64,000 nt of DNA from Escherichia coli (GTDB lineage Bacteria; Pseudomonadota; Gammaproteobacteria; Enterobacterales; Enterobacteriaceae). How positions within the stretch are numbered: position 1 is the first letter of the stretch; every line of letters starts with the position of its first letter. Of this stretch, positions 18,936 to 48,581 are shown one piece after another. A model generated the notes under the pieces. The model did not search any database. It was not told the DNA's origin and worked only from the letters and a program-made list of their open reading frames with translations. The DNA lies in the NCBI RefSeq assembly GCF_003790525.1, contig NZ_CP033635.1; one strand, given 5' to 3'. Both the position numbers and the translations under genes were made by a program.

Positions 18936-19296
18936 AAAGTCCTGTCCAGAAAGAAGTCGGCCTCGCAAAAATGAATAAACCCAGTTTCTCTTGCGCAACA
19001 GGTGGAGAAGTCGAATACGCAGTATGTAAAAAATGAGGCAACAGATTCACTGGGGAGGTCGCGAGGAGGCGCAATTCTACAAAATTGCGCATTTCACTAC
19101 CAGTCTGGAGTCAGCCCGGATATGAACTGCAACTATTGCAAATAAAGAAATTAAGCTGGAATGCATCACGCAATGAGGAAGATTGCCGGGTGCTGACGGT
19201 AAAAAGCAATCGTAGAATCAGCGGCAAGCCGGAAAGGTTCCGGTGAGGCGCAATGTTGCGGGGGCTTAATCCCTGGTGGCATTGGTTGCTGGAGAG

Positions 19297-19362
19297 AGAA
19301 AACCCCCGCATATTGCAGGTATGCACCTGACAACATCACGGGGGCTAATCTTGAACCTAGAC
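19297..19362 (-). ncRNA. rdl: Rdl antisense RNA, copy 1 (approximate boundaries)
   Basis: Antisense to the ldr leader; minus-strand transcript would begin GUCUAGGUUCAAGAUUAGCCCCCGUG and end in a GC hairpin plus U-run; position inferred from K-12 ldrD/rdlD organisation. Confidence 0.4.
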
Positions 19363-19410
19363 CACTCAAGAATAGCCGCGAAACGTTGTCATTACAACAC
19401 AGGCGGCTAT

Positions 19411-19518
19411 ATGACGCTCGCAGAACTGGGCATGGCCTTCTGGCATGATTTAGCGGCTCCGGTCATTGCTGGCATTCTTGCCAGCATGATCGTGAACTGG
19501 CTGAATAAGCGGAAGTAA
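19411..19518 (+). CDS. ldr: type I toxin Ldr, 35-aa membrane peptide (copy 1)
   Basis: MTLAELGMAFWHDLAAPVIAGILASMIVNWLNKRK; near-identical to K-12 LdrD. Confidence 0.9.
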   Translation: MTLAELGMAFWHDLAAPVIAGILASMIVNWLNKRK

Positions 19519-19568
19519 CGTGTCAGACGGGCGTCAGGCTGCCGTAATGGCAATTTGCGCCCGGACCA

Positions 19569-19599
19569 GGCCGCAGGGATAAAACTCTGCGGCCTTTTT
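19569..19599 (+). terminator. rho-independent terminator of ldr copy 1
   Basis: GGCCGCAG / CTGCGGCC stem followed by TTTTT. Confidence 0.7.
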
Positions 19600-19779
19600 C
19601 GTAAGAAAAATGCAACGGTTGCAAGCGGATAATATTCTGCGGAATGCGCAGCACAGAGTGAAGACGTGACGGATTCCGGAACAGAAAAACAGTCGTAGAA
19701 TCAGCGGCAAGCCGGAAAGGTTCCGGTGAGGCGCAATGTTGCGGGGGCTTTATCCCTGGTGGCATTGGTTGCTGGAGAG

Positions 19780-19845
19780 AGAAAACCCCCGCACGTTGCA
19801 GGTATGCACCTGACAACACCACGGGGGCTAATCTTGACTCTAGAC
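19780..19845 (-). ncRNA. rdl: Rdl antisense RNA, copy 2 (approximate boundaries)
   Basis: Minus strand would start GUCUAGAGUCAAGAUUAGCCCCCGUGGUG and end …GCGGGGGUUUUCU; candidate promoter TTGTAA-17-TATTCT upstream on the minus strand. Confidence 0.45.
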
Positions 19846-19893
19846 CACTCAAGAATAGCCGCGAAACGTTGTCATTACAACACAGGCGGCTAT

Positions 19894-20001
19894 ATGACGC
19901 TCGCAGAGCTGGGCATGGCCTTCTGGCATGATTTAGCGGCTCCGGTCATTGCTGGCATTCTTGCCAGCATGATCGTGAACTGGCTGAACAAGCGGAAGTA
20001 A
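19894..20001 (+). CDS. ldr: type I toxin Ldr, 35-aa membrane peptide (copy 2)
   Basis: Peptide identical to copy 1. Confidence 0.9.
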   Translation: MTLAELGMAFWHDLAAPVIAGILASMIVNWLNKRK

Positions 20002-20051
20002 CGTGTCAGACGGGCGTCAGGCTGCCGTAATGGCAATTTGCGCCCGGACCA

Positions 20052-20082
20052 GGCCGCAGGGATAAAACTCTGCGGCCTTTTT
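20052..20082 (+). terminator. rho-independent terminator of ldr copy 2
   Basis: same hairpin plus T-run as copy 1. Confidence 0.7.
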
Positions 20083-20263
20083 CGTAAGAAAAATGCAACG
20101 GTTGCAAGCGGATAATATTCTGCGGAATGCGCAGCACAGAGTGAAGAAGTGATGGATTTCGACGAACAAAAATGGCCGTAGAATCAGCGGCAAGCCGGAA
20201 GGGTTCCGGTGAGGCGCAATGTTGCGGGGGGCTTTATCCCTGGTGGCATTGGTTGCTGGAGAG

Positions 20264-20329
20264 AGAAAACCCCCGCACGTTGCAGGTATGCACCTGACAA
20301 CACCACGGGGGCTAATCTTGACTCTAGAC
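20264..20329 (-). ncRNA. rdl: Rdl antisense RNA, copy 3 (approximate boundaries)
   Basis: same position relative to the ldr ORF as in copy 2; sequence essentially identical. Confidence 0.45.
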
Positions 20330-20377
20330 CACTCAAGAATAGCCGCGAAACGTTGTCATTACAACACAGGCGGCTAT

Positions 20378-20485
20378 ATGACGCTCGCAGAGCTGGGCAT
20401 GGCCTTCTGGCATGATTTAGCGGCTCCGGTCATTGCTGGCATTCTTGCCAGTCTGATCGTGAACTGGCTGAACAAGCGGAAGTAA
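20378..20485 (+). CDS. ldr: type I toxin Ldr, 35-aa membrane peptide (copy 3, M26L variant)
   Basis: MTLAELGMAFWHDLAAPVIAGILASLIVNWLNKRK. Confidence 0.9.
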   Translation: MTLAELGMAFWHDLAAPVIAGILASLIVNWLNKRK

Positions 20486-20535
20486 CGTGTCAGACGGGCG
20501 TCAGGCTGCCGTAATGGCAATTTGCGCCCGGATCA

Positions 20536-20566
20536 GGCCGCAGGGATAAAACTCTGCGGCCTTTTT
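20536..20566 (+). terminator. rho-independent terminator of ldr copy 3
   Basis: GGCCGCAG / CTGCGGCC stem plus TTTTT. Confidence 0.7.
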
Positions 20567-20747
20567 CGTAAGAAAAATGCAACGGTTGCAAGCGGATAAT
20601 ATTCTGCGGAATGCGCAGCACAGAGTGAAGACGTGACGGATTCCGGAACAGAAAAACAGTCGTAGAATCAGTGGCAAGCCGGAAGGGTTCCGGTGAGGCG
20701 CAATGTTGCGGGGGGCTTAATCCCTGGTGGCATTGGTTGCTGGAGAG

Positions 20748-20813
20748 AGAAAACCCCCGCACGTTGCAGGTATGCACCTGACAACATCACGGGGGCTAAT
20801 CTTGAACCTTAAC
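20748..20813 (-). ncRNA. rdl: Rdl antisense RNA, copy 4 (approximate; 5' region diverged)
   Basis: Homologous position, but the predicted 5' end/promoter-proximal sequence is CTTGAACCTTAACAACTC instead of CTTGACTCTAGACCACTC. Confidence 0.3.
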
Positions 20814-20861
20814 AACTCAAGAATAGCCGCGAAACGTTGTCATTACAACAGAGGCGGCTAT

Positions 20862-20969
20862 ATGACGCTCGCAGAACTGGGCATGGCCTTCTGGCATGAT
20901 TTAGCGGCTCCGGTCATTGCTGGCATTCTTGCCAGTCTGATCGTGAACTCGCTGAATAAGCGGAAGTAA
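20862..20969 (+). CDS. ldr: type I toxin Ldr, 35-aa peptide (copy 4, M26L and W30S variant)
   Basis: MTLAELGMAFWHDLAAPVIAGILASLIVNSLNKRK. Confidence 0.85.
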   Translation: MTLAELGMAFWHDLAAPVIAGILASLIVNSLNKRK

Positions 20970-21019
20970 CGTGTCATGCGGGCGTCAGGCTGCCGTAATG
21001 GCAAGTTGCGCCCGGACCA

Positions 21020-21050
21020 GGCCGCAGGGGTGAAACTCTGCGGCCTTTTT
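21020..21050. terminator. terminator of ldr copy 4, 5 bp from the bcsG stop codon (possibly bidirectional)
   Basis: GGCCGCAG / CTGCGGCC stem plus TTTTT; bcsG stop codon at 21056-21058 on the opposite strand. Confidence 0.6.
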
Positions 21051-21055
21051 CGTTC

Positions 21056-40685: not shown

Positions 40686-41216
40686 ATGCGCTACAAAGTC
40701 ACACTGTTCTTGCTGACTATGATTCTCTGCTTAACAGGGTTCTATTCCTGCAACAAGAACTTCCTCTTACTCTGGGATGCCAATAATATGTATGTCAGCA
40801 CAAGAAATAATATCGATAAAGACAAGGTAAAAATAGAATTCGGTATCAGCGTCAACACGATCAACCGAGAGACGGATGCCGAATTATTTACTGACAGAGC
40901 GAAGTATAGAATTATCTTCGATGGTAACCTAAAAAACAGGATGATAAATGAGTACGGCGAAAATGATTTTTTAATTACCTACGATGACCGCTGCTATTTA
41001 TCATTTCGTCAATTTAAAACCAATCGTCGTCATCAACATGACTATTATTTTGACTTCTTTAACAACAATGGGAATGTCTTTGTCACAGTCGAAATCAAAG
41101 GCGAGAACCCACTTAAATTTACGCGTAGTTTAAATGATATGCGTCAGCAGTTTTCACCAACTCGTGAGGATAGCCCTTCTCACTCCTGCAAGGTTATTTC
41201 TTCAGATCCTTCTTAA
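40686..41216 (+). CDS. hypothetical protein, AT-rich gene, N-terminal signal/anchor-like hydrophobic segment
   Basis: 176-aa ORF with AAAGGA RBS 5 nt upstream of ATG; markedly AT-rich by eye; N-terminus MRYKVTLFLLTMILCLTGFYSC; no K-12 counterpart recalled. Confidence 0.6.
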   Translation: MRYKVTLFLLTMILCLTGFYSCNKNFLLLWDANNMYVSTRNNIDKDKVKIEFGISVNTINRETDAELFTDRAKYRIIFDGNLKNRMINEYGENDFLITYDDRCYLSFRQFKTNRRHQHDYYFDFFNNNGNVFVTVEIKGENPLKFTRSLNDMRQQFSPTREDSPSHSCKVISSDPS

Positions 41217-43236
41217 ACACTGGATCTGGACAATCACGACCAAAATGCGCAGACCAGTCAAAAACTTTACCGTTTTTCACGTAGCGTTGATAAATTAATG
41301 CACCGGTTTCTGTATCACGATATCTGACCCAACTTGCAGCATGGCATAACACGGCAGCCCAAGCCTGGGTTTTAGGGTGAAGTAAATCGGCAGATTGTCC
41401 GGCCCATTCCGCAGCCTGCCAGCGGTAATGCAAAAAATGATCATCAGCGGTGGGGATTGCATGGCGAATACGTTGTTTTTCTTTACGACTTATCCACTGA
41501 TCGTTATTTCTGTATTCAAAGAGTGCTGAATACTGCCCACTGGAAATAGCATTATCGGGATACATTTCATAAGCCACCAATTCGATACCACTGAAACGTA
41601 AAAGCCGCGCAGCTTCGTATTGCGCCTGGGCGCGTTGTTTATCAGGGATATTTTTATTTTTTGCTATCGCCATTAAATCAGCCAGTTTTTGTGCGGCCTG
41701 GCGATGATCGGGAATATCAAACCAATTGATGGCCTGCTGATACTGACCATTACGTATTAATCGTCTACCTAATAGTGCACGTAATTTAACATCCGTGGGA
41801 ATGATATCTGGCGAAATATAATAACCGTAACTGCTCTTGTTTAAATCTATAGGTTTTAAAGGATGCTGAGGTGCTGGTACGTTTTTTTCAACAAACGCGT
41901 GTAACTCTGACAAGGTCAAAACGTTTTCTGCCACCCAGGCTAAATCAGCCCAATAGAGATCTTTGGCCTGGTAAAATAATGCGGTGGCCTGAAGATAATC
42001 ATCGCGTTTTAATGCCACAATCGCCTGTTCACTGGCAATACGGCAAGACGGGATGGTAACTTTATCGGCATGATAATAAGGGCTTTCCGGGTCCATACTT
42101 CCCCAGACTTCATCGGTAGAGAACAGCGGGGCTGCGCGAGCATAGTGACGCGTTGCCAGTGGAATATCTCCGGCTCGTAATGCCATTTTTGCTTTTAACC
42201 ATTCGCTTAATCCACTTTCTGGCGCATCCTGCAACAGCGTTTGTGCTAACGAATAATTTCCTGCCCGATACGCCAGTGCTGCCAGGCGATCGCTATAACT
42301 AAATCCTTTAACTCTGTGTTGACTTAGCAACTTAATTAAACGGTCGCGATGCGTTGGACAGGTATAATCTACAAGGTCCTTAGTACAGGCTTCGCTAACA
42401 TACCCCCAGTCATGACGAATAAAGAGCTCTGCGATTACCAGTTGCTGAACCAGAGAATCATTAATAACCGACTCCAGCAGTGGTAAATTTTTCTCCCTGG
42501 TTATATACAGCGAAATCATCCGTAGCGACGCTTTCCCGGAGGGCGAACCCTGGGCCGCTTGCCGGGCATACATTTTTACTGCCGCAGCGACATCACCTTT
42601 TTTCAGATAATAATGCCCAATCTGACCGAGACTGGCGAGAGAGAGCAATTCAGGATCGGCTGCTCCATTACGCACTTCTTCAATGATTTGCTGATAACGC
42701 TGTATGGCCTGCTCAGCAAGTTCCTGATTAAAGCCGCCTTTATTGATTATAAGATCGAGATTGTCGTCAGTGGCATCAAATCCCCCCCTTGCCAGACTAT
42801 ATAGCGTAGCAAGACGCCATTCCCCTTGCTCTGTTTTCGGCAAGGCTAATAATTGCTGAAAGTAAGGGCTATCGTATTTTCCCTGATGAAAATCCTTAGC
42901 TCCTGAATAATAAAGCCTCTGCGCCTTAGATAATGGCTTCTGCAATTTTTGCGTGATTTCCAGTATCCGATTTTGCGCAGGAGGCTCAGCATCATCATCT
43001 GTATTTGCCTGCGTTGCCTCCGCGGGCGTATCTTCATGCCATATCGGTAAATCAGGATCGCGTTTAGCCAACTGTTGTACTTCAAAGACAAAACTGCCAT
43101 TTGGCATTTCCAGCAGTGCGCTATTGCGGTCAGTTAACAGATGGTTAGGAATAAATGGTCCACAGGCATTAACGTTGGCGCTAATTAGTGAGAGAAATAC
43201 AATAACGGAAAGCCGCGATATTTTAGGGGATAACAT
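41194..43236 (-). CDS. hypothetical secreted protein, predicted signal peptide and helical-repeat (TPR/Sel1-like?) character
   Basis: 680-aa ORF; strong RBS (AGGAG, 6-nt spacing); N-terminus MLSPKISRLSVIVFLSLISANVNA; low-complexity acidic linker then Tyr/Ala/Leu-rich segments; start overlaps the upstream ORF by 14 nt. Confidence 0.75.
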   Translation of the reverse strand: MLSPKISRLSVIVFLSLISANVNACGPFIPNHLLTDRNSALLEMPNGSFVFEVQQLAKRDPDLPIWHEDTPAEATQANTDDDAEPPAQNRILEITQKLQKPLSKAQRLYYSGAKDFHQGKYDSPYFQQLLALPKTEQGEWRLATLYSLARGGFDATDDNLDLIINKGGFNQELAEQAIQRYQQIIEEVRNGAADPELLSLASLGQIGHYYLKKGDVAAAVKMYARQAAQGSPSGKASLRMISLYITREKNLPLLESVINDSLVQQLVIAELFIRHDWGYVSEACTKDLVDYTCPTHRDRLIKLLSQHRVKGFSYSDRLAALAYRAGNYSLAQTLLQDAPESGLSEWLKAKMALRAGDIPLATRHYARAAPLFSTDEVWGSMDPESPYYHADKVTIPSCRIASEQAIVALKRDDYLQATALFYQAKDLYWADLAWVAENVLTLSELHAFVEKNVPAPQHPLKPIDLNKSSYGYYISPDIIPTDVKLRALLGRRLIRNGQYQQAINWFDIPDHRQAAQKLADLMAIAKNKNIPDKQRAQAQYEAARLLRFSGIELVAYEMYPDNAISSGQYSALFEYRNNDQWISRKEKQRIRHAIPTADDHFLHYRWQAAEWAGQSADLLHPKTQAWAAVLCHAASWVRYRDTETGALIYQRYVKNGKVFDWSAHFGRDCPDPVFKKDLKK

Positions 43237-44428
43237 TAAACTCTCCTTGAATTTTTTGATTGCAGCGCGCCCATCCCAGCGGACTGCTTTCTCCGGCGCG
43301 TAGTTGCCTGGCGCTTCCTCTCACAAAATTCAGGCTGGATGGTCCAGGTTGCACCTGATAGTGGCTGGCTCCATCAGCGAATAGACAATCTGCATTGGAC
43401 ATAATTATTTGTTTTGGCAATGGCGCATCAATTACGCCGCTGTTTTTAAAGGCCAGATCAAAAAGTTGCTTGTCTGCATGTTGAGTAATTATTAACGACC
43501 AGCGCGGAGTCAGCGGTTGATGTTGAATCACAGCTTCAAGCGTTGTCAGGGACCAGGCGCGGCGATCGCCTGCTAATGGTAGCCGAAACCATACCAACCC
43601 CTGTAATCCATGCGGTGGTTGCTGTTCTAAATATTGAATGAAATCGGCAATTGTTTGCGGCGACACACTTAATTCACGCATCTCTTCGGCAACGTATAAC
43701 GGAGCTTCACTCTCGACGCGATTATCACTGGTGAGCGCAGAACCGTAAGCGGGCAATGCGATGAAAAAAGGATGCGTGGTTTGTCTGGCATATTGCTTTA
43801 CCCAACGCTGCGCCAGACTGGCATCTAACAGGCCTTTTTCGGGCGATAGCACGTTATGTACCTGCAAAACCGAAGTGTCCGCAATCCGCAATAATCGGGC
43901 GAGATGTGGTGATTCAAGCCAGGTAGGCAGGACGGTAATGCTAAGTTTTATATTTGTAGGAAGTGCCTGATGTAACGTACTAAGTAGGGTCAGATAGTCC
44001 GGCAATTTTGCTGTTGGCGCGTCATAATCAATTTCTACCCCTACCAGCGTAATACCAGCTTTTTGCCACTCACGTAGGGTTTGTTGAATATGCTGGATAA
44101 TTTGCTGGTTATTAAGCCGTGTAAGCTGACCTTCGAGTCGCGCGACCAGCCAGACCGGGCGACCATCTTGCTTAATAAGTGAAGTATTAACCGTAAAGTG
44201 TCGGATGCCTTCTTGCGGGTGAAATTGCATCCCGAGTACGCGAAGCGTAGAGAAAAGCGGGCGGCTTCGTTTGAGTGCCTCGTTATGTTCTGCCGTCCAG
44301 ACGCGTTGCCAGATATAGACTTGCTGATCAAAGCGAAGCGGTTGTGAAGGGGTAAATAAAATATGCAGCCCGTAGCCCAGGCAGATCAGAAGAAGTGAAG
44401 CTGCAAAAATCCTTTTGCAAGATGGCAT
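43223..44428 (-). CDS. hypothetical protein with N-terminal signal peptide or membrane anchor
   Basis: 401-aa ORF; N-terminus MPSCKRIFAASLLLICLGYGLHILF; no family assigned from sequence alone; lies 94 bp downstream of kdgK on the same strand. Confidence 0.7.
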   Translation of the reverse strand: MPSCKRIFAASLLLICLGYGLHILFTPSQPLRFDQQVYIWQRVWTAEHNEALKRSRPLFSTLRVLGMQFHPQEGIRHFTVNTSLIKQDGRPVWLVARLEGQLTRLNNQQIIQHIQQTLREWQKAGITLVGVEIDYDAPTAKLPDYLTLLSTLHQALPTNIKLSITVLPTWLESPHLARLLRIADTSVLQVHNVLSPEKGLLDASLAQRWVKQYARQTTHPFFIALPAYGSALTSDNRVESEAPLYVAEEMRELSVSPQTIADFIQYLEQQPPHGLQGLVWFRLPLAGDRRAWSLTTLEAVIQHQPLTPRWSLIITQHADKQLFDLAFKNSGVIDAPLPKQIIMSNADCLFADGASHYQVQPGPSSLNFVRGSARQLRAGESSPLGWARCNQKIQGEFNVIP

Positions 44429-44522: not shown

Positions 44523-45452
44523 TTACGCAGGCATCGCTTCACGCGGGATAATCGCGCCGCGATACTGAATAACGGTACTTGCGGTCAGGTGCCCGCGTTT
44601 CGCTGCGTCTTCCGCACTGCCGCCCGTCAAACGTACCGCCAGATAACCGGCACTGAAAGAGTCGCCAGCTGCGGTGGTATCGATCACTTTTTCTTTCGGC
44701 AGTTTTACCGCCGGAACATCCACTAACCCTTCGCCAGCAATGGACACCAGGCAAGAATCCGCCCCGCGTTTCACCACCACTTCTTTCACGCCCGCGTTAT
44801 GGGTGCGCGCAATGACGTCTTCCACCGGCTGTTGACCCCACAGCGCGTCTTCATCGTCCAGCGTCAGGAAGGCGATATCCGTGCATTCCAGCATTTGTTG
44901 GTACACCTGCTGTGTCTCTTCTTTGCTGGCCCACAGGCGCGGACGATAGTTATTGTCGAAAATCACTTTTCCGCCGTTGGCGCGGCATTCGCGCAGCAGG
45001 GAAAGCAGCTTTTCGCGGCTGGTCGGGCTTAAGATCGCCAGGCTAATCCCGCTCAGGTAGAGATAATCGAAATTCGCCAGCTCTTCACAAATCGCCGCGG
45101 ATTGCTCACTCTCCAGCCAGAATTTGGCGGCGGCTTCGTTACGCCAGTAGTAGAACGTACGTTCGCCGGTGCTGTCGGTTTCAATGTAGTAAAGGCCCGG
45201 CAGACGGTTTTCCATCCGTTGGGTCAGGGAAGTATCAACGTTCTCGCCGTGCCAGGCGTCCAGCATCTGCTGGCTAAAACTGTCCGTTCCCAGCGCCGTT
45301 ACGTAATGAACGGTTAATGCCGCAGGATCGACCTGACGGGCGATATAGACGGAAGTGTTCAGGGTATCGCCGCCGAAACCGCGCTTAACGTCCGCGCCTT
45401 TCTCGGAAAGCTCAATCATGCATTCGCCAATCACGGCAATCTTTTTGGACAT
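44523..45452 (-). CDS. kdgK: 2-dehydro-3-deoxygluconokinase
   Basis: Track ORF 44523-45800 trimmed to MSKKIAVIGECMIEL start at 45452 (309 aa); PfkB sugar-kinase family. Confidence 0.94.
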   Translation of the reverse strand: MSKKIAVIGECMIELSEKGADVKRGFGGDTLNTSVYIARQVDPAALTVHYVTALGTDSFSQQMLDAWHGENVDTSLTQRMENRLPGLYYIETDSTGERTFYYWRNEAAAKFWLESEQSAAICEELANFDYLYLSGISLAILSPTSREKLLSLLRECRANGGKVIFDNNYRPRLWASKEETQQVYQQMLECTDIAFLTLDDEDALWGQQPVEDVIARTHNAGVKEVVVKRGADSCLVSIAGEGLVDVPAVKLPKEKVIDTTAAGDSFSAGYLAVRLTGGSAEDAAKRGHLTASTVIQYRGAIIPREAMPA

Positions 45453-45608
45453 AGTCGTGAACCTGATCTGTAAAAAATTAGCGTTAGTTTGCGCTGTGGT
45501 GGTTTGCTGGTCAACCATATTAAAACAGTGTTCCATTATTTTTTTGAGCCAGAACGTATTCCTGAAAGATTCCGTTGTGGAGTGGGGAAATTTACCCCGG
45601 CCAGGCGG

Positions 45609-45635
45609 TAAAGTTCTGCCCTTGCGCGCCGATAA
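45609..45635 (+). promoter_or_regulatory. sigma28 (FliA) class III flagellar promoter of pdeH
   Basis: TAAA, 15-bp spacer, GCCGATAA, exact match to the sigma28 consensus, about 50 bp upstream of the pdeH ATG. Confidence 0.7.
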
Positions 45636-45683
45636 TCTTTGTCGAGTCCGGGCAGCATCACTTTTAAACACAGGACATCTTTG

Positions 45684-46451
45684 ATGATAAGGCAGGTTAT
45701 CCAGCGAATAAGCAACCCTGAAGCAAGCATCGAGAGCTTGCAGGAACGGCGTTTTTGGTTGCAGTGTGAGCGTGCTTACACCTGGCAGCCGATCTATCAA
45801 ACATGCGGGCGGTTAATGGCCGTGGAGCTATTAACGGTGGTCACGCATCCCTTGAACCCTTCGCAACGCCTGCCGCCGGATCGCTATTTTACTGAAATCA
45901 CCGTTAGCCATCGGATGGAGGTTGTGAAAGAGCAGATTGATTTGCTGGCGCAAAAAGCCGACTTCTTTGTAGAGCACGGCCTGCTGGCATCGGTCAATAT
46001 TGATGGCCCTACGCTCATCGCCCTGCGTCAGCAACCAAAAATCCTGCGCCAGATTGAGGATCTTCCCTGGCTGCGTTTCGAACTGGTGGAACACATCCGC
46101 CTGCCGAAAGATTCAACCTTTGCCTCGATGTGTGAATTTGGCCCGCTGTGGCTGGATGATTTTGGTACCGGGATGGCAAATTTCTCTGCACTAAGTGAAG
46201 TGCGTTATGACTACATCAAAATCGCGCGAGAACTGTTTGTGATGCTGCGTCAGTCACCGGAAGGACGCACACTCTTTTCTCAGCTTTTACATCTCATGAA
46301 TCGCTATTGTCGCGGGGTGATTGTTGAGGGCGTAGAAACGCCGGAAGAGTGGCGTGATGTTCAGAACTCGCCCGCATTCGCCGCACAAGGCTGGTTTCTT
46401 TCACGCCCGTCACCGATAGAAACGCTGAATACGGCGGTTCTGGCGCTATAA
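45684..46451 (+). CDS. pdeH: c-di-GMP phosphodiesterase PdeH (EAL only)
   Basis: Track ORF 45639-46451 trimmed to MIRQVIQRISN start (255 aa); EAL-domain motifs. Confidence 0.94.
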   Translation: MIRQVIQRISNPEASIESLQERRFWLQCERAYTWQPIYQTCGRLMAVELLTVVTHPLNPSQRLPPDRYFTEITVSHRMEVVKEQIDLLAQKADFFVEHGLLASVNIDGPTLIALRQQPKILRQIEDLPWLRFELVEHIRLPKDSTFASMCEFGPLWLDDFGTGMANFSALSEVRYDYIKIARELFVMLRQSPEGRTLFSQLLHLMNRYCRGVIVEGVETPEEWRDVQNSPAFAAQGWFLSRPSPIETLNTAVLAL

Positions 46452-46520
46452 GCTGCCTCATTTTCCGCCTGGCTGGACTATCTTTAGGACTGGCACAGGA
46501 AGAATATGAGGAAGCGAACG

Positions 46521-48581
46521 ATGAGCAAGGCAGGCAAAATAACCGCTGCGATTTCAGGGGCTTTCTTGTTGTTGATTGTCGTGGCGATCATTTTGATTGC
46601 AACTTTTGACTGGAATCGACTCAAACCGACCATCAACCAGAAAGTCTCTGCGGAGTTGAATCGTCCGTTCGCTATCCGTGGCGATCTGGGCGTGGTGTGG
46701 GAGCGGCAAAAACAAGAAACTGGCTGGCGCAGCTGGGTACCGTGGCCCCATGTACACGCGGAAGACATCATTCTTGGCAATCCACCGGATATTCCCGAAG
46801 TCACAATGGTGCATTTGCCGCGAGTAGAAGCGACGCTGGCCCCGCTGGAGCTGCTGACCAAAACGGTCTGGTTGCCGTGGATCAAGCTCGAAAAGCCCGA
46901 CGCGCGCCTGATTCGCCTCTCCGAAAAGAACAATAACTGGACGTTTAATCTCGGCAACGATGACAACAAAGACGCGAATGCAAAGCCGTCGGCGTGGTCG
47001 TTTCGGCTGGATAATATTCTGTTCGATCAAGGGCGGATCGCCATTGATGACAAAGTAAGCAAAGCGGATCTGGAAATTTTTGTCGATCCGTTAGGCAAGC
47101 CGCTGCCGTTCAGCGAAGTTACCGGATCGAAAGGTAAAGCGGATAAAGAAAAGGTGGGCGATTACGTTTTTGGCCTGAAGGCGCAGGGACGTTATAACGG
47201 TGAACCGCTCACTGGTACGGGAAAAATAGGCGGTATGCTGGCGCTGCGTGGCGAAGGTACGCCGTTTCCGGTACAGGCTGATTTCCGCTCTGGTAACACC
47301 CGTGTTGCTTTTGATGGCGTTGTGAATGACCCAATGAAGATGGGGGGTGTCGATTTACGGCTTAAATTTTCTGGCGATTCGCTGGGTGATCTCTATGAAC
47401 TGACGGGCGTTCTGCTGCCCGATACCCCGCCGTTTGAAACGGATGGTCGGCTGGTAGCGAAAATCGACACTGAAAAATCGTCGGTCTTTGATTATCGCGG
47501 TTTTAATGGGCGCATTGGCGATAGCGATATCCACGGTTCTCTGATCTACACCACCGGCAAGCCACGACCAAAACTGGAAGGTGATGTCGAGTCGCGGCAA
47601 TTGCGGCTGGCGGACCTGGGACCGTTGATTGGCGTTGATTCCGGGAAAGGAGCTGAAAAGTCGACACGGTCTGAACAGAAGAAGGGTGAAAAAAGCGTTC
47701 AGCCTGCGGGCAAAGTGCTGCCTTATGACCGCTTCGAAACCGATAAATGGGATGTCATGGATGCCGATGTTCGCTTCAAAGGGCGGCGCATTGAACATGG
47801 CAGTAGCCTGCCGATTAGCGATCTTTCTACTCATATCATCCTCAAAAATGCTGACCTGCGCCTGCAACCGCTGAAATTTGGCATGGCGGGCGGCAGCATT
47901 GCGGCGAATATTCATCTGGAAGGCGATAAAAAGCCGATGCAGGGGCGGGCAGATATTCAGGCTCGTCGACTGAAACTGAAAGAACTGATGCCCGATGTAG
48001 AACTGATGCAGAAGACGCTGGGGGAAATGAACGGTGACGCGGAACTACGCGGTAGCGGTAACTCGGTGGCGGCGCTTTTAGGCAACAGTAACGGCAACCT
48101 GAAACTGTTGATGAATGACGGGCTGGTGAGCCGCAACCTGATGGAGATTGTCGGGCTGAATGTCGGCAACTACATTGTCGGTGCGATATTTGGTGACGAT
48201 GAGGTGCGGGTGAACTGCGCGGCGGCGAATCTTGATATTGCCAACGGCGTGGCGCGCCCGCAGATCTTTGCTTTCGATACGGAGAACGCGTTGATTAACG
48301 TTACCGGCACGGCAAGTTTTGCTTCGGAACAGCTGGATTTGACTATCGATCCAGAAAGTAAAGGGATTCGGATTATCACACTGCGTTCGCCGCTGTATGT
48401 GCGTGGGACGTTTAAAAATCCGCAGGCTGGGGTAAAAGCCGGACCGTTGATTGCTCGCGGAGCCGTCGCGGCGGCACTGGCAACGCTGGTTACGCCAGCG
48501 GCGGCGTTACTGGCGCTGATCTCTCCTTCCGAAGGGGAGGCTAATCAGTGTCGGACGATTTTGTCGCAGATGAAGAAGTGA
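46521..48581 (+). CDS. yhjG: AsmA-family inner membrane-anchored protein YhjG
   Basis: Track ORF trimmed to MSKAGKITAAISGAF start (686 aa); N-terminal TM helix. Confidence 0.9.
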   Translation: MSKAGKITAAISGAFLLLIVVAIILIATFDWNRLKPTINQKVSAELNRPFAIRGDLGVVWERQKQETGWRSWVPWPHVHAEDIILGNPPDIPEVTMVHLPRVEATLAPLELLTKTVWLPWIKLEKPDARLIRLSEKNNNWTFNLGNDDNKDANAKPSAWSFRLDNILFDQGRIAIDDKVSKADLEIFVDPLGKPLPFSEVTGSKGKADKEKVGDYVFGLKAQGRYNGEPLTGTGKIGGMLALRGEGTPFPVQADFRSGNTRVAFDGVVNDPMKMGGVDLRLKFSGDSLGDLYELTGVLLPDTPPFETDGRLVAKIDTEKSSVFDYRGFNGRIGDSDIHGSLIYTTGKPRPKLEGDVESRQLRLADLGPLIGVDSGKGAEKSTRSEQKKGEKSVQPAGKVLPYDRFETDKWDVMDADVRFKGRRIEHGSSLPISDLSTHIILKNADLRLQPLKFGMAGGSIAANIHLEGDKKPMQGRADIQARRLKLKELMPDVELMQKTLGEMNGDAELRGSGNSVAALLGNSNGNLKLLMNDGLVSRNLMEIVGLNVGNYIVGAIFGDDEVRVNCAAANLDIANGVARPQIFAFDTENALINVTGTASFASEQLDLTIDPESKGIRIITLRSPLYVRGTFKNPQAGVKAGPLIARGAVAAALATLVTPAAALLALISPSEGEANQCRTILSQMKK

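Follow-up and report, generated by a model that had tools for sequence, protein, structure and literature searches.

The element TAAAGTTCTGCCCTTGCGCGCCGATAA at 45609-45635 on the plus strand of the window (the whole 64-kb stretch of Escherichia coli DNA analysed here) is almost certainly the FliA-dependent class 3 flagellar promoter of pdeH (yhjH). The pdeH FliA promoter is already known biology. Since it is the known class 3 promoter of this gene, there is nothing novel in its occurrence here and it involves no new mechanism. Its presence indicates that the strain keeps intact the link from the flagellar cascade to c-di-GMP degradation, a central node of the motility-to-biofilm switch.

The promoter element and its setting

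A first-pass annotation of this DNA had reported an exact match to TAAA-N15-GCCGATAA upstream of pdeH. This is confirmed, and the match is the only exact one on either strand of the window, against a chance expectation of 0.01 from dinucleotide-preserving shuffles. The fuller published sigma-28 consensus is TAAAGTTT-n11-GCCGATAA (PMC2859248); the pdeH promoter agrees with it at 15 of 16 positions, with an 11-nt spacer, and the single mismatch falls at position 8 of the -35 element, where C replaces T. A weight matrix derived from the 51 other E. coli K-12 FliA ChIP-seq sites, with the pdeH site left out, scores the promoter at 23.6 bits. The runner-up in the window scores 15.0 and the top score among 20 shuffled windows is 18.0 bits. 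The list of matches with two mismatches is swollen by three copies within one tandem repeat.

The annotated positions of pdeH on the plus strand and kdgK on the minus strand place the promoter within their divergent intergenic region of 231 bp (Table 1). The divergent arrangement was thus described correctly at the outset, and it recurs in all 78 loci in which it could be scored; in these, 129-172 nt separate the kdgK ATG from the -35 element. The pdeH ATG lies 48 nt beyond the end of the -10 element, in the same orientation. PdeH differs from its K-12 counterpart by three substitutions, and its EAL domain (PF00563) spans residues 26-242 (Pfam, E = 2.6e-32); catalytic activity is predicted.

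Table 1 Features of the pdeH locus and the neighbouring island, in window coordinates
Feature	Coordinates	Strand	Basis or content
Strain-variable island between yhjJ and kdgK	40686-44428		ORFs of 176 aa (+), 680 aa (-) and 401 aa (-)
kdgK, divergent neighbour	44523..45452	-	annotation; ATG at 45452
sigma-28 -35 element TAAAGTTC (consensus TAAAGTTT)	45609..45616	+	sequence and conservation
11-nt spacer TGCCCTTGCGC	45617..45627	+	constant length, free sequence
sigma-28 -10 element GCCGATAA, 8/8 consensus	45628..45635	+	invariant; within K-12 yhjH FliA ChIP-seq motif
Predicted transcription start zone	45641..45644	+	inferred RegulonDB +1; FliA promoter spacing
Inferred 42-nt pdeH leader	45642..45683	+	conserved 5' block GTCGAGTCC from 45641; Shine-Dalgarno AGGA at 45673-45676
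pdeH (yhjH), 255 aa, stand-alone EAL c-di-GMP phosphodiesterase	45684..46451	+	RefSeq annotation, Pfam EAL

The transcription start is placed by two lines of reasoning. RegulonDB puts the +1 of yhjHp at 3677252 in NC_000913.2, with the codes HIPP/AIPP that denote an inferred position (Table S3, PMC4183435); this corresponds to window position 45642, the T of TTTGTCGAG, seven nucleotides past the -10 octamer. Flagellar FliA promoters start 18-22 bp downstream of the motif centre. Full-text searches of the literature, including the supplements of Kim 2012 and Cho 2014, returned no experimentally mapped single-nucleotide start for pdeH/yhjH. In most related loci the pdeH leader is 40-45 nt long. 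An exception in a relative is Citrobacter amalonaticus S646 (locus L009, positions 1266-1480), which keeps the sigma-28 promoter intact and has an insert of about 187 nt between it and the Shine-Dalgarno sequence of pdeH, making the leader roughly 230 nt.

FliA control in K-12 and conservation across enterobacteria

Experiments on the same promoter in K-12 address its function directly. This evidence can be summarised as (i) a FliA ChIP-seq peak upstream of yhjH with the motif TAAAGTTCTGCCCTTACGCGCCGATAAT (Fitzgerald et al. 2014, PMC4183435), whose fold-above-threshold of 67 is joint fifth among 52 K-12 sites (PMC4183435); (ii) ChIP-qPCR values at the promoter of 10.1 vs 0.31 (PMC4183435 supplements); (iii) a significant fall in yhjH RNA from 511 in the motile wild type to 2 in the fliA deletion (PMC4183435); (iv) qRT-PCR that puts yhjH in the fliA deletion at 0.027 of wild type (PMC4183435); (v) an independent microarray in which yhjH changes by -9.6-fold with the fliA deletion and rises 1.9-fold on sigma-F induction (Zhao et al. 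2007, PMC1935009). Comparison with FliA regulon data had been suggested as one check, and the K-12 ChIP-seq, ChIP-qPCR, RNA-seq, qRT-PCR and microarray results agree on FliA binding and dependence. The proposal that pdeH is a class III flagellar gene that lowers c-di-GMP is likewise supported, by this dependence, by the EAL domain and by the description of yhjH as a class 3 gene whose product is the major phosphodiesterase (Serra et al. 2013, PMC3604763).

K-12 departs from the window at only two intergenic bases, 45585 and spacer base 45625 (G here, A in K-12), and all 16 consensus positions are the same. We infer that the strain here behaves like K-12 in FliA binding and dependence. K-12 yhjHp (RegulonDB ECK120009896) also shares the locus, the distance to the ATG and the divergent kdgK; apart from the two bases, this strain differs from it by the extra island beyond kdgK.

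The promoter has the TAAAGTTT-N11-GCCGATAA architecture of the canonical class 3 FliA promoters (tar, tsr, flgMN, fliC, motA). Its match to consensus is level with tsr and flgMN and below that of tar (16/16). It differs from these promoters in that the gene it controls encodes a signalling enzyme, not a part of the flagellum or of the chemotaxis system, and in that no genus examined has the consensus T at position 8 of the -35 element, only C or A. The promoter of ycgR, a c-di-GMP effector gene and the functional partner of PdeH in motor control, is like that of yhjH in being FliA-bound (fold-above-threshold also 67) with FliA-dependent RNA (104 to 0), although with TTAAGTTT and ACCGATAA it is weaker in consensus match (14/16).

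A scan for PdeH with one genome per species gave 80 loci with protein identities of 67-92%, drawn from about 25 genera of enterobacteria; 79 have upstream DNA for comparison, and the 80 sites yield 75 distinct sequences. All 79 carry TAAAGTT[C/A]-N11-GCCGATAA. The -10 octamer is invariant and the spacer is 11 nt long throughout (79/79 for each), while among the 75 distinct sequences the -35 element varies only at position 8, between C and A. The spacer sequence is free, with 57 distinct variants and only its first T invariant. Pairwise identity among the distinct sequences is 1.0 in the -10 element, 0.98 in the -35 element, 0.45 in the spacer and about 0.5 (up to 0.53) in the flanks. Both promoter elements stand out in the multiple alignment as islands of identity. 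This is a clean textbook sigma-28 footprint that methods for finding promoters might use as a positive control. Of 5426 complete E. coli genomes, 5421 have the 116-bp promoter region at ≥95% identity; the longer stretch 45300-45960 is found in 5422 and is 100% identical in several. One record in the comparison (L057, CACSKA010000004.1) is titled Chryseobacterium sp. 18061, yet its kdgK-pdeH locus, promoter included, is typical of enterobacteria; this assembly is probably mislabelled or contaminated.

In the resulting model, RNA polymerase carrying FliA (sigma-28) would recognise TAAAGTTC and GCCGATAA, 11 bp apart, and would begin transcription about 6-8 nt past the -10 element, near 45641-45644, which corresponds to 3679230-3679227 in NC_000913.3. 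The transcript would consist of a leader of roughly 42 nt followed by pdeH. FliA is made under FlhDC control and freed from FlgM on completion of the hook-basal body, and PdeH would therefore be made together with the late flagellar proteins. yhjH is not among the FlhDC site table entries examined. PdeH would then lower c-di-GMP, keep the YcgR brake off the motor and delay the expression of curli and CsgD.

Alternative explanations

At many E. coli FliA ChIP sites the RNA of the associated gene does not change, and the pdeH match could in principle be a chance or non-productive site of this kind, like the many weak intragenic ones, with another promoter driving pdeH. The +1, a predicted position, leaves some room for this. 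The site is, however, intergenic, correctly oriented and close to the ATG, K-12 loses nearly all yhjH RNA without FliA, and a promoter scan of 45300-46600 detected no sigma-70-like promoter. Its perfect conservation across genera also speaks for function, whereas non-functional FliA sites are reportedly not conserved. We consider a chance site extremely improbable. Equally improbable is the idea that the strain-specific island, or the control region of kdgK, alters pdeH promoter activity in this strain. The island is 1.18 kb away and a KdgR-like operator does lie in the same intergenic region, but the whole of kdgK stands between island and promoter, the island-free ATCC 11775 has the same intergenic sequence (100% identity), and the centre of the KdgR-like box lies towards kdgK, about 114 nt upstream of the predicted start.

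A different kind of alternative accepts the sigma-28 promoter as real and adds a second layer of control on the leader, in which GACGAGTCC pairs with the Shine-Dalgarno sequence CAGGAC or binds a small RNA or protein. The block at 45641-45649 (GTCGAGTCC here, GACGAGTCC in most genera) has six positions more than 90% conserved in 21 genera, in contrast with the remainder of the leader, and RNAalifold proposes a 4-bp GUCC:GGAC pairing. Against this, the consensus energy is only -1.75 kcal/mol, RNAalifold finds no compensatory changes or covariation across the genera, and the single sequence folds no better than its shuffles (z = +0.75). Pairing of the leader with the Shine-Dalgarno sequence is thus unsupported, there being neither covariation nor an energy excess, and for the same reasons we rejected leader secondary structure as a supported feature. 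Neither promoter nor leader matches an Rfam family, and conservation beside the +1 could equally reflect a constraint on promoter escape or start-site choice. A second layer of this sort seems unlikely. Conservation does extend strictly beyond the consensus, to the non-consensus ninth-position context TAAAGTT[C/A]T and to the GC-rich bases that immediately precede the -10 element. That these, together with the leader GACGAGTCC, mark an extra control of pdeH is a long shot; such control, for example by leader-Shine-Dalgarno pairing or through binding of a small RNA or protein, would tune the amount of phosphodiesterase made per pulse of FliA. The simple FliA-dependent class 3 promoter is the reading we retain.

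The neighbouring island and other features of the window

The distance of about 1.2 kb first given between promoter and island is correct: 1181 bp, with kdgK in between, separate the -35 element from the end of the nearest island ORF (43223-44428). Because kdgK intervenes, this proximity has no demonstrated meaning, and since genomes that have the island and genomes that lack it share an identical promoter region, it has no evident functional meaning either; no sign of a functional link between the island and the pdeH promoter was found. The island is a separate question, on which the pdeH promoter does not bear. Of 5426 complete E. coli genomes, 30 (SMS-3-5 among them) have the whole island and 200 have part of it; K-12 and ATCC 11775 lack it. 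Pfam identifies DUF3142 in the 401-aa ORF and gives no match for the 176-aa and 680-aa ORFs.

On the kdgK side of the intergenic region, a block at 45507-45550 hardly varies among 21 genera. The palindrome at its core, TATTAAAACAGTGTTCCATTA (45518-45538), agrees at 15 of 20 positions with the KdgR operator consensus AAATGAAACAnTGTTTCATTT and is followed by a conserved T-run. Judged by sequence, the block is probably the operator of kdgK and not part of pdeH control.

Downstream, the spacer between pdeH and yhjG (46452-46515) can form a long imperfect hairpin (-30 kcal/mol, z = -3.6). The Shine-Dalgarno sequence of yhjG lies within this hairpin, and no T-run follows it. Across genera, RNAalifold detects no common structure in this spacer, although a core ACTATCTTTA is conserved.

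Elsewhere in the window, 19202-21053 is a 484-bp tandem repeat of 3.8 copies with four Rfam matches to the rdlD antitoxin RNA on the minus strand (19297-19362, 19780-19845, 20264-20329 and 20748-20813). The repeat is an expanded array of the ldr/rdl type I toxin-antitoxin kind (LDR), at a locus where K-12 has a single copy.
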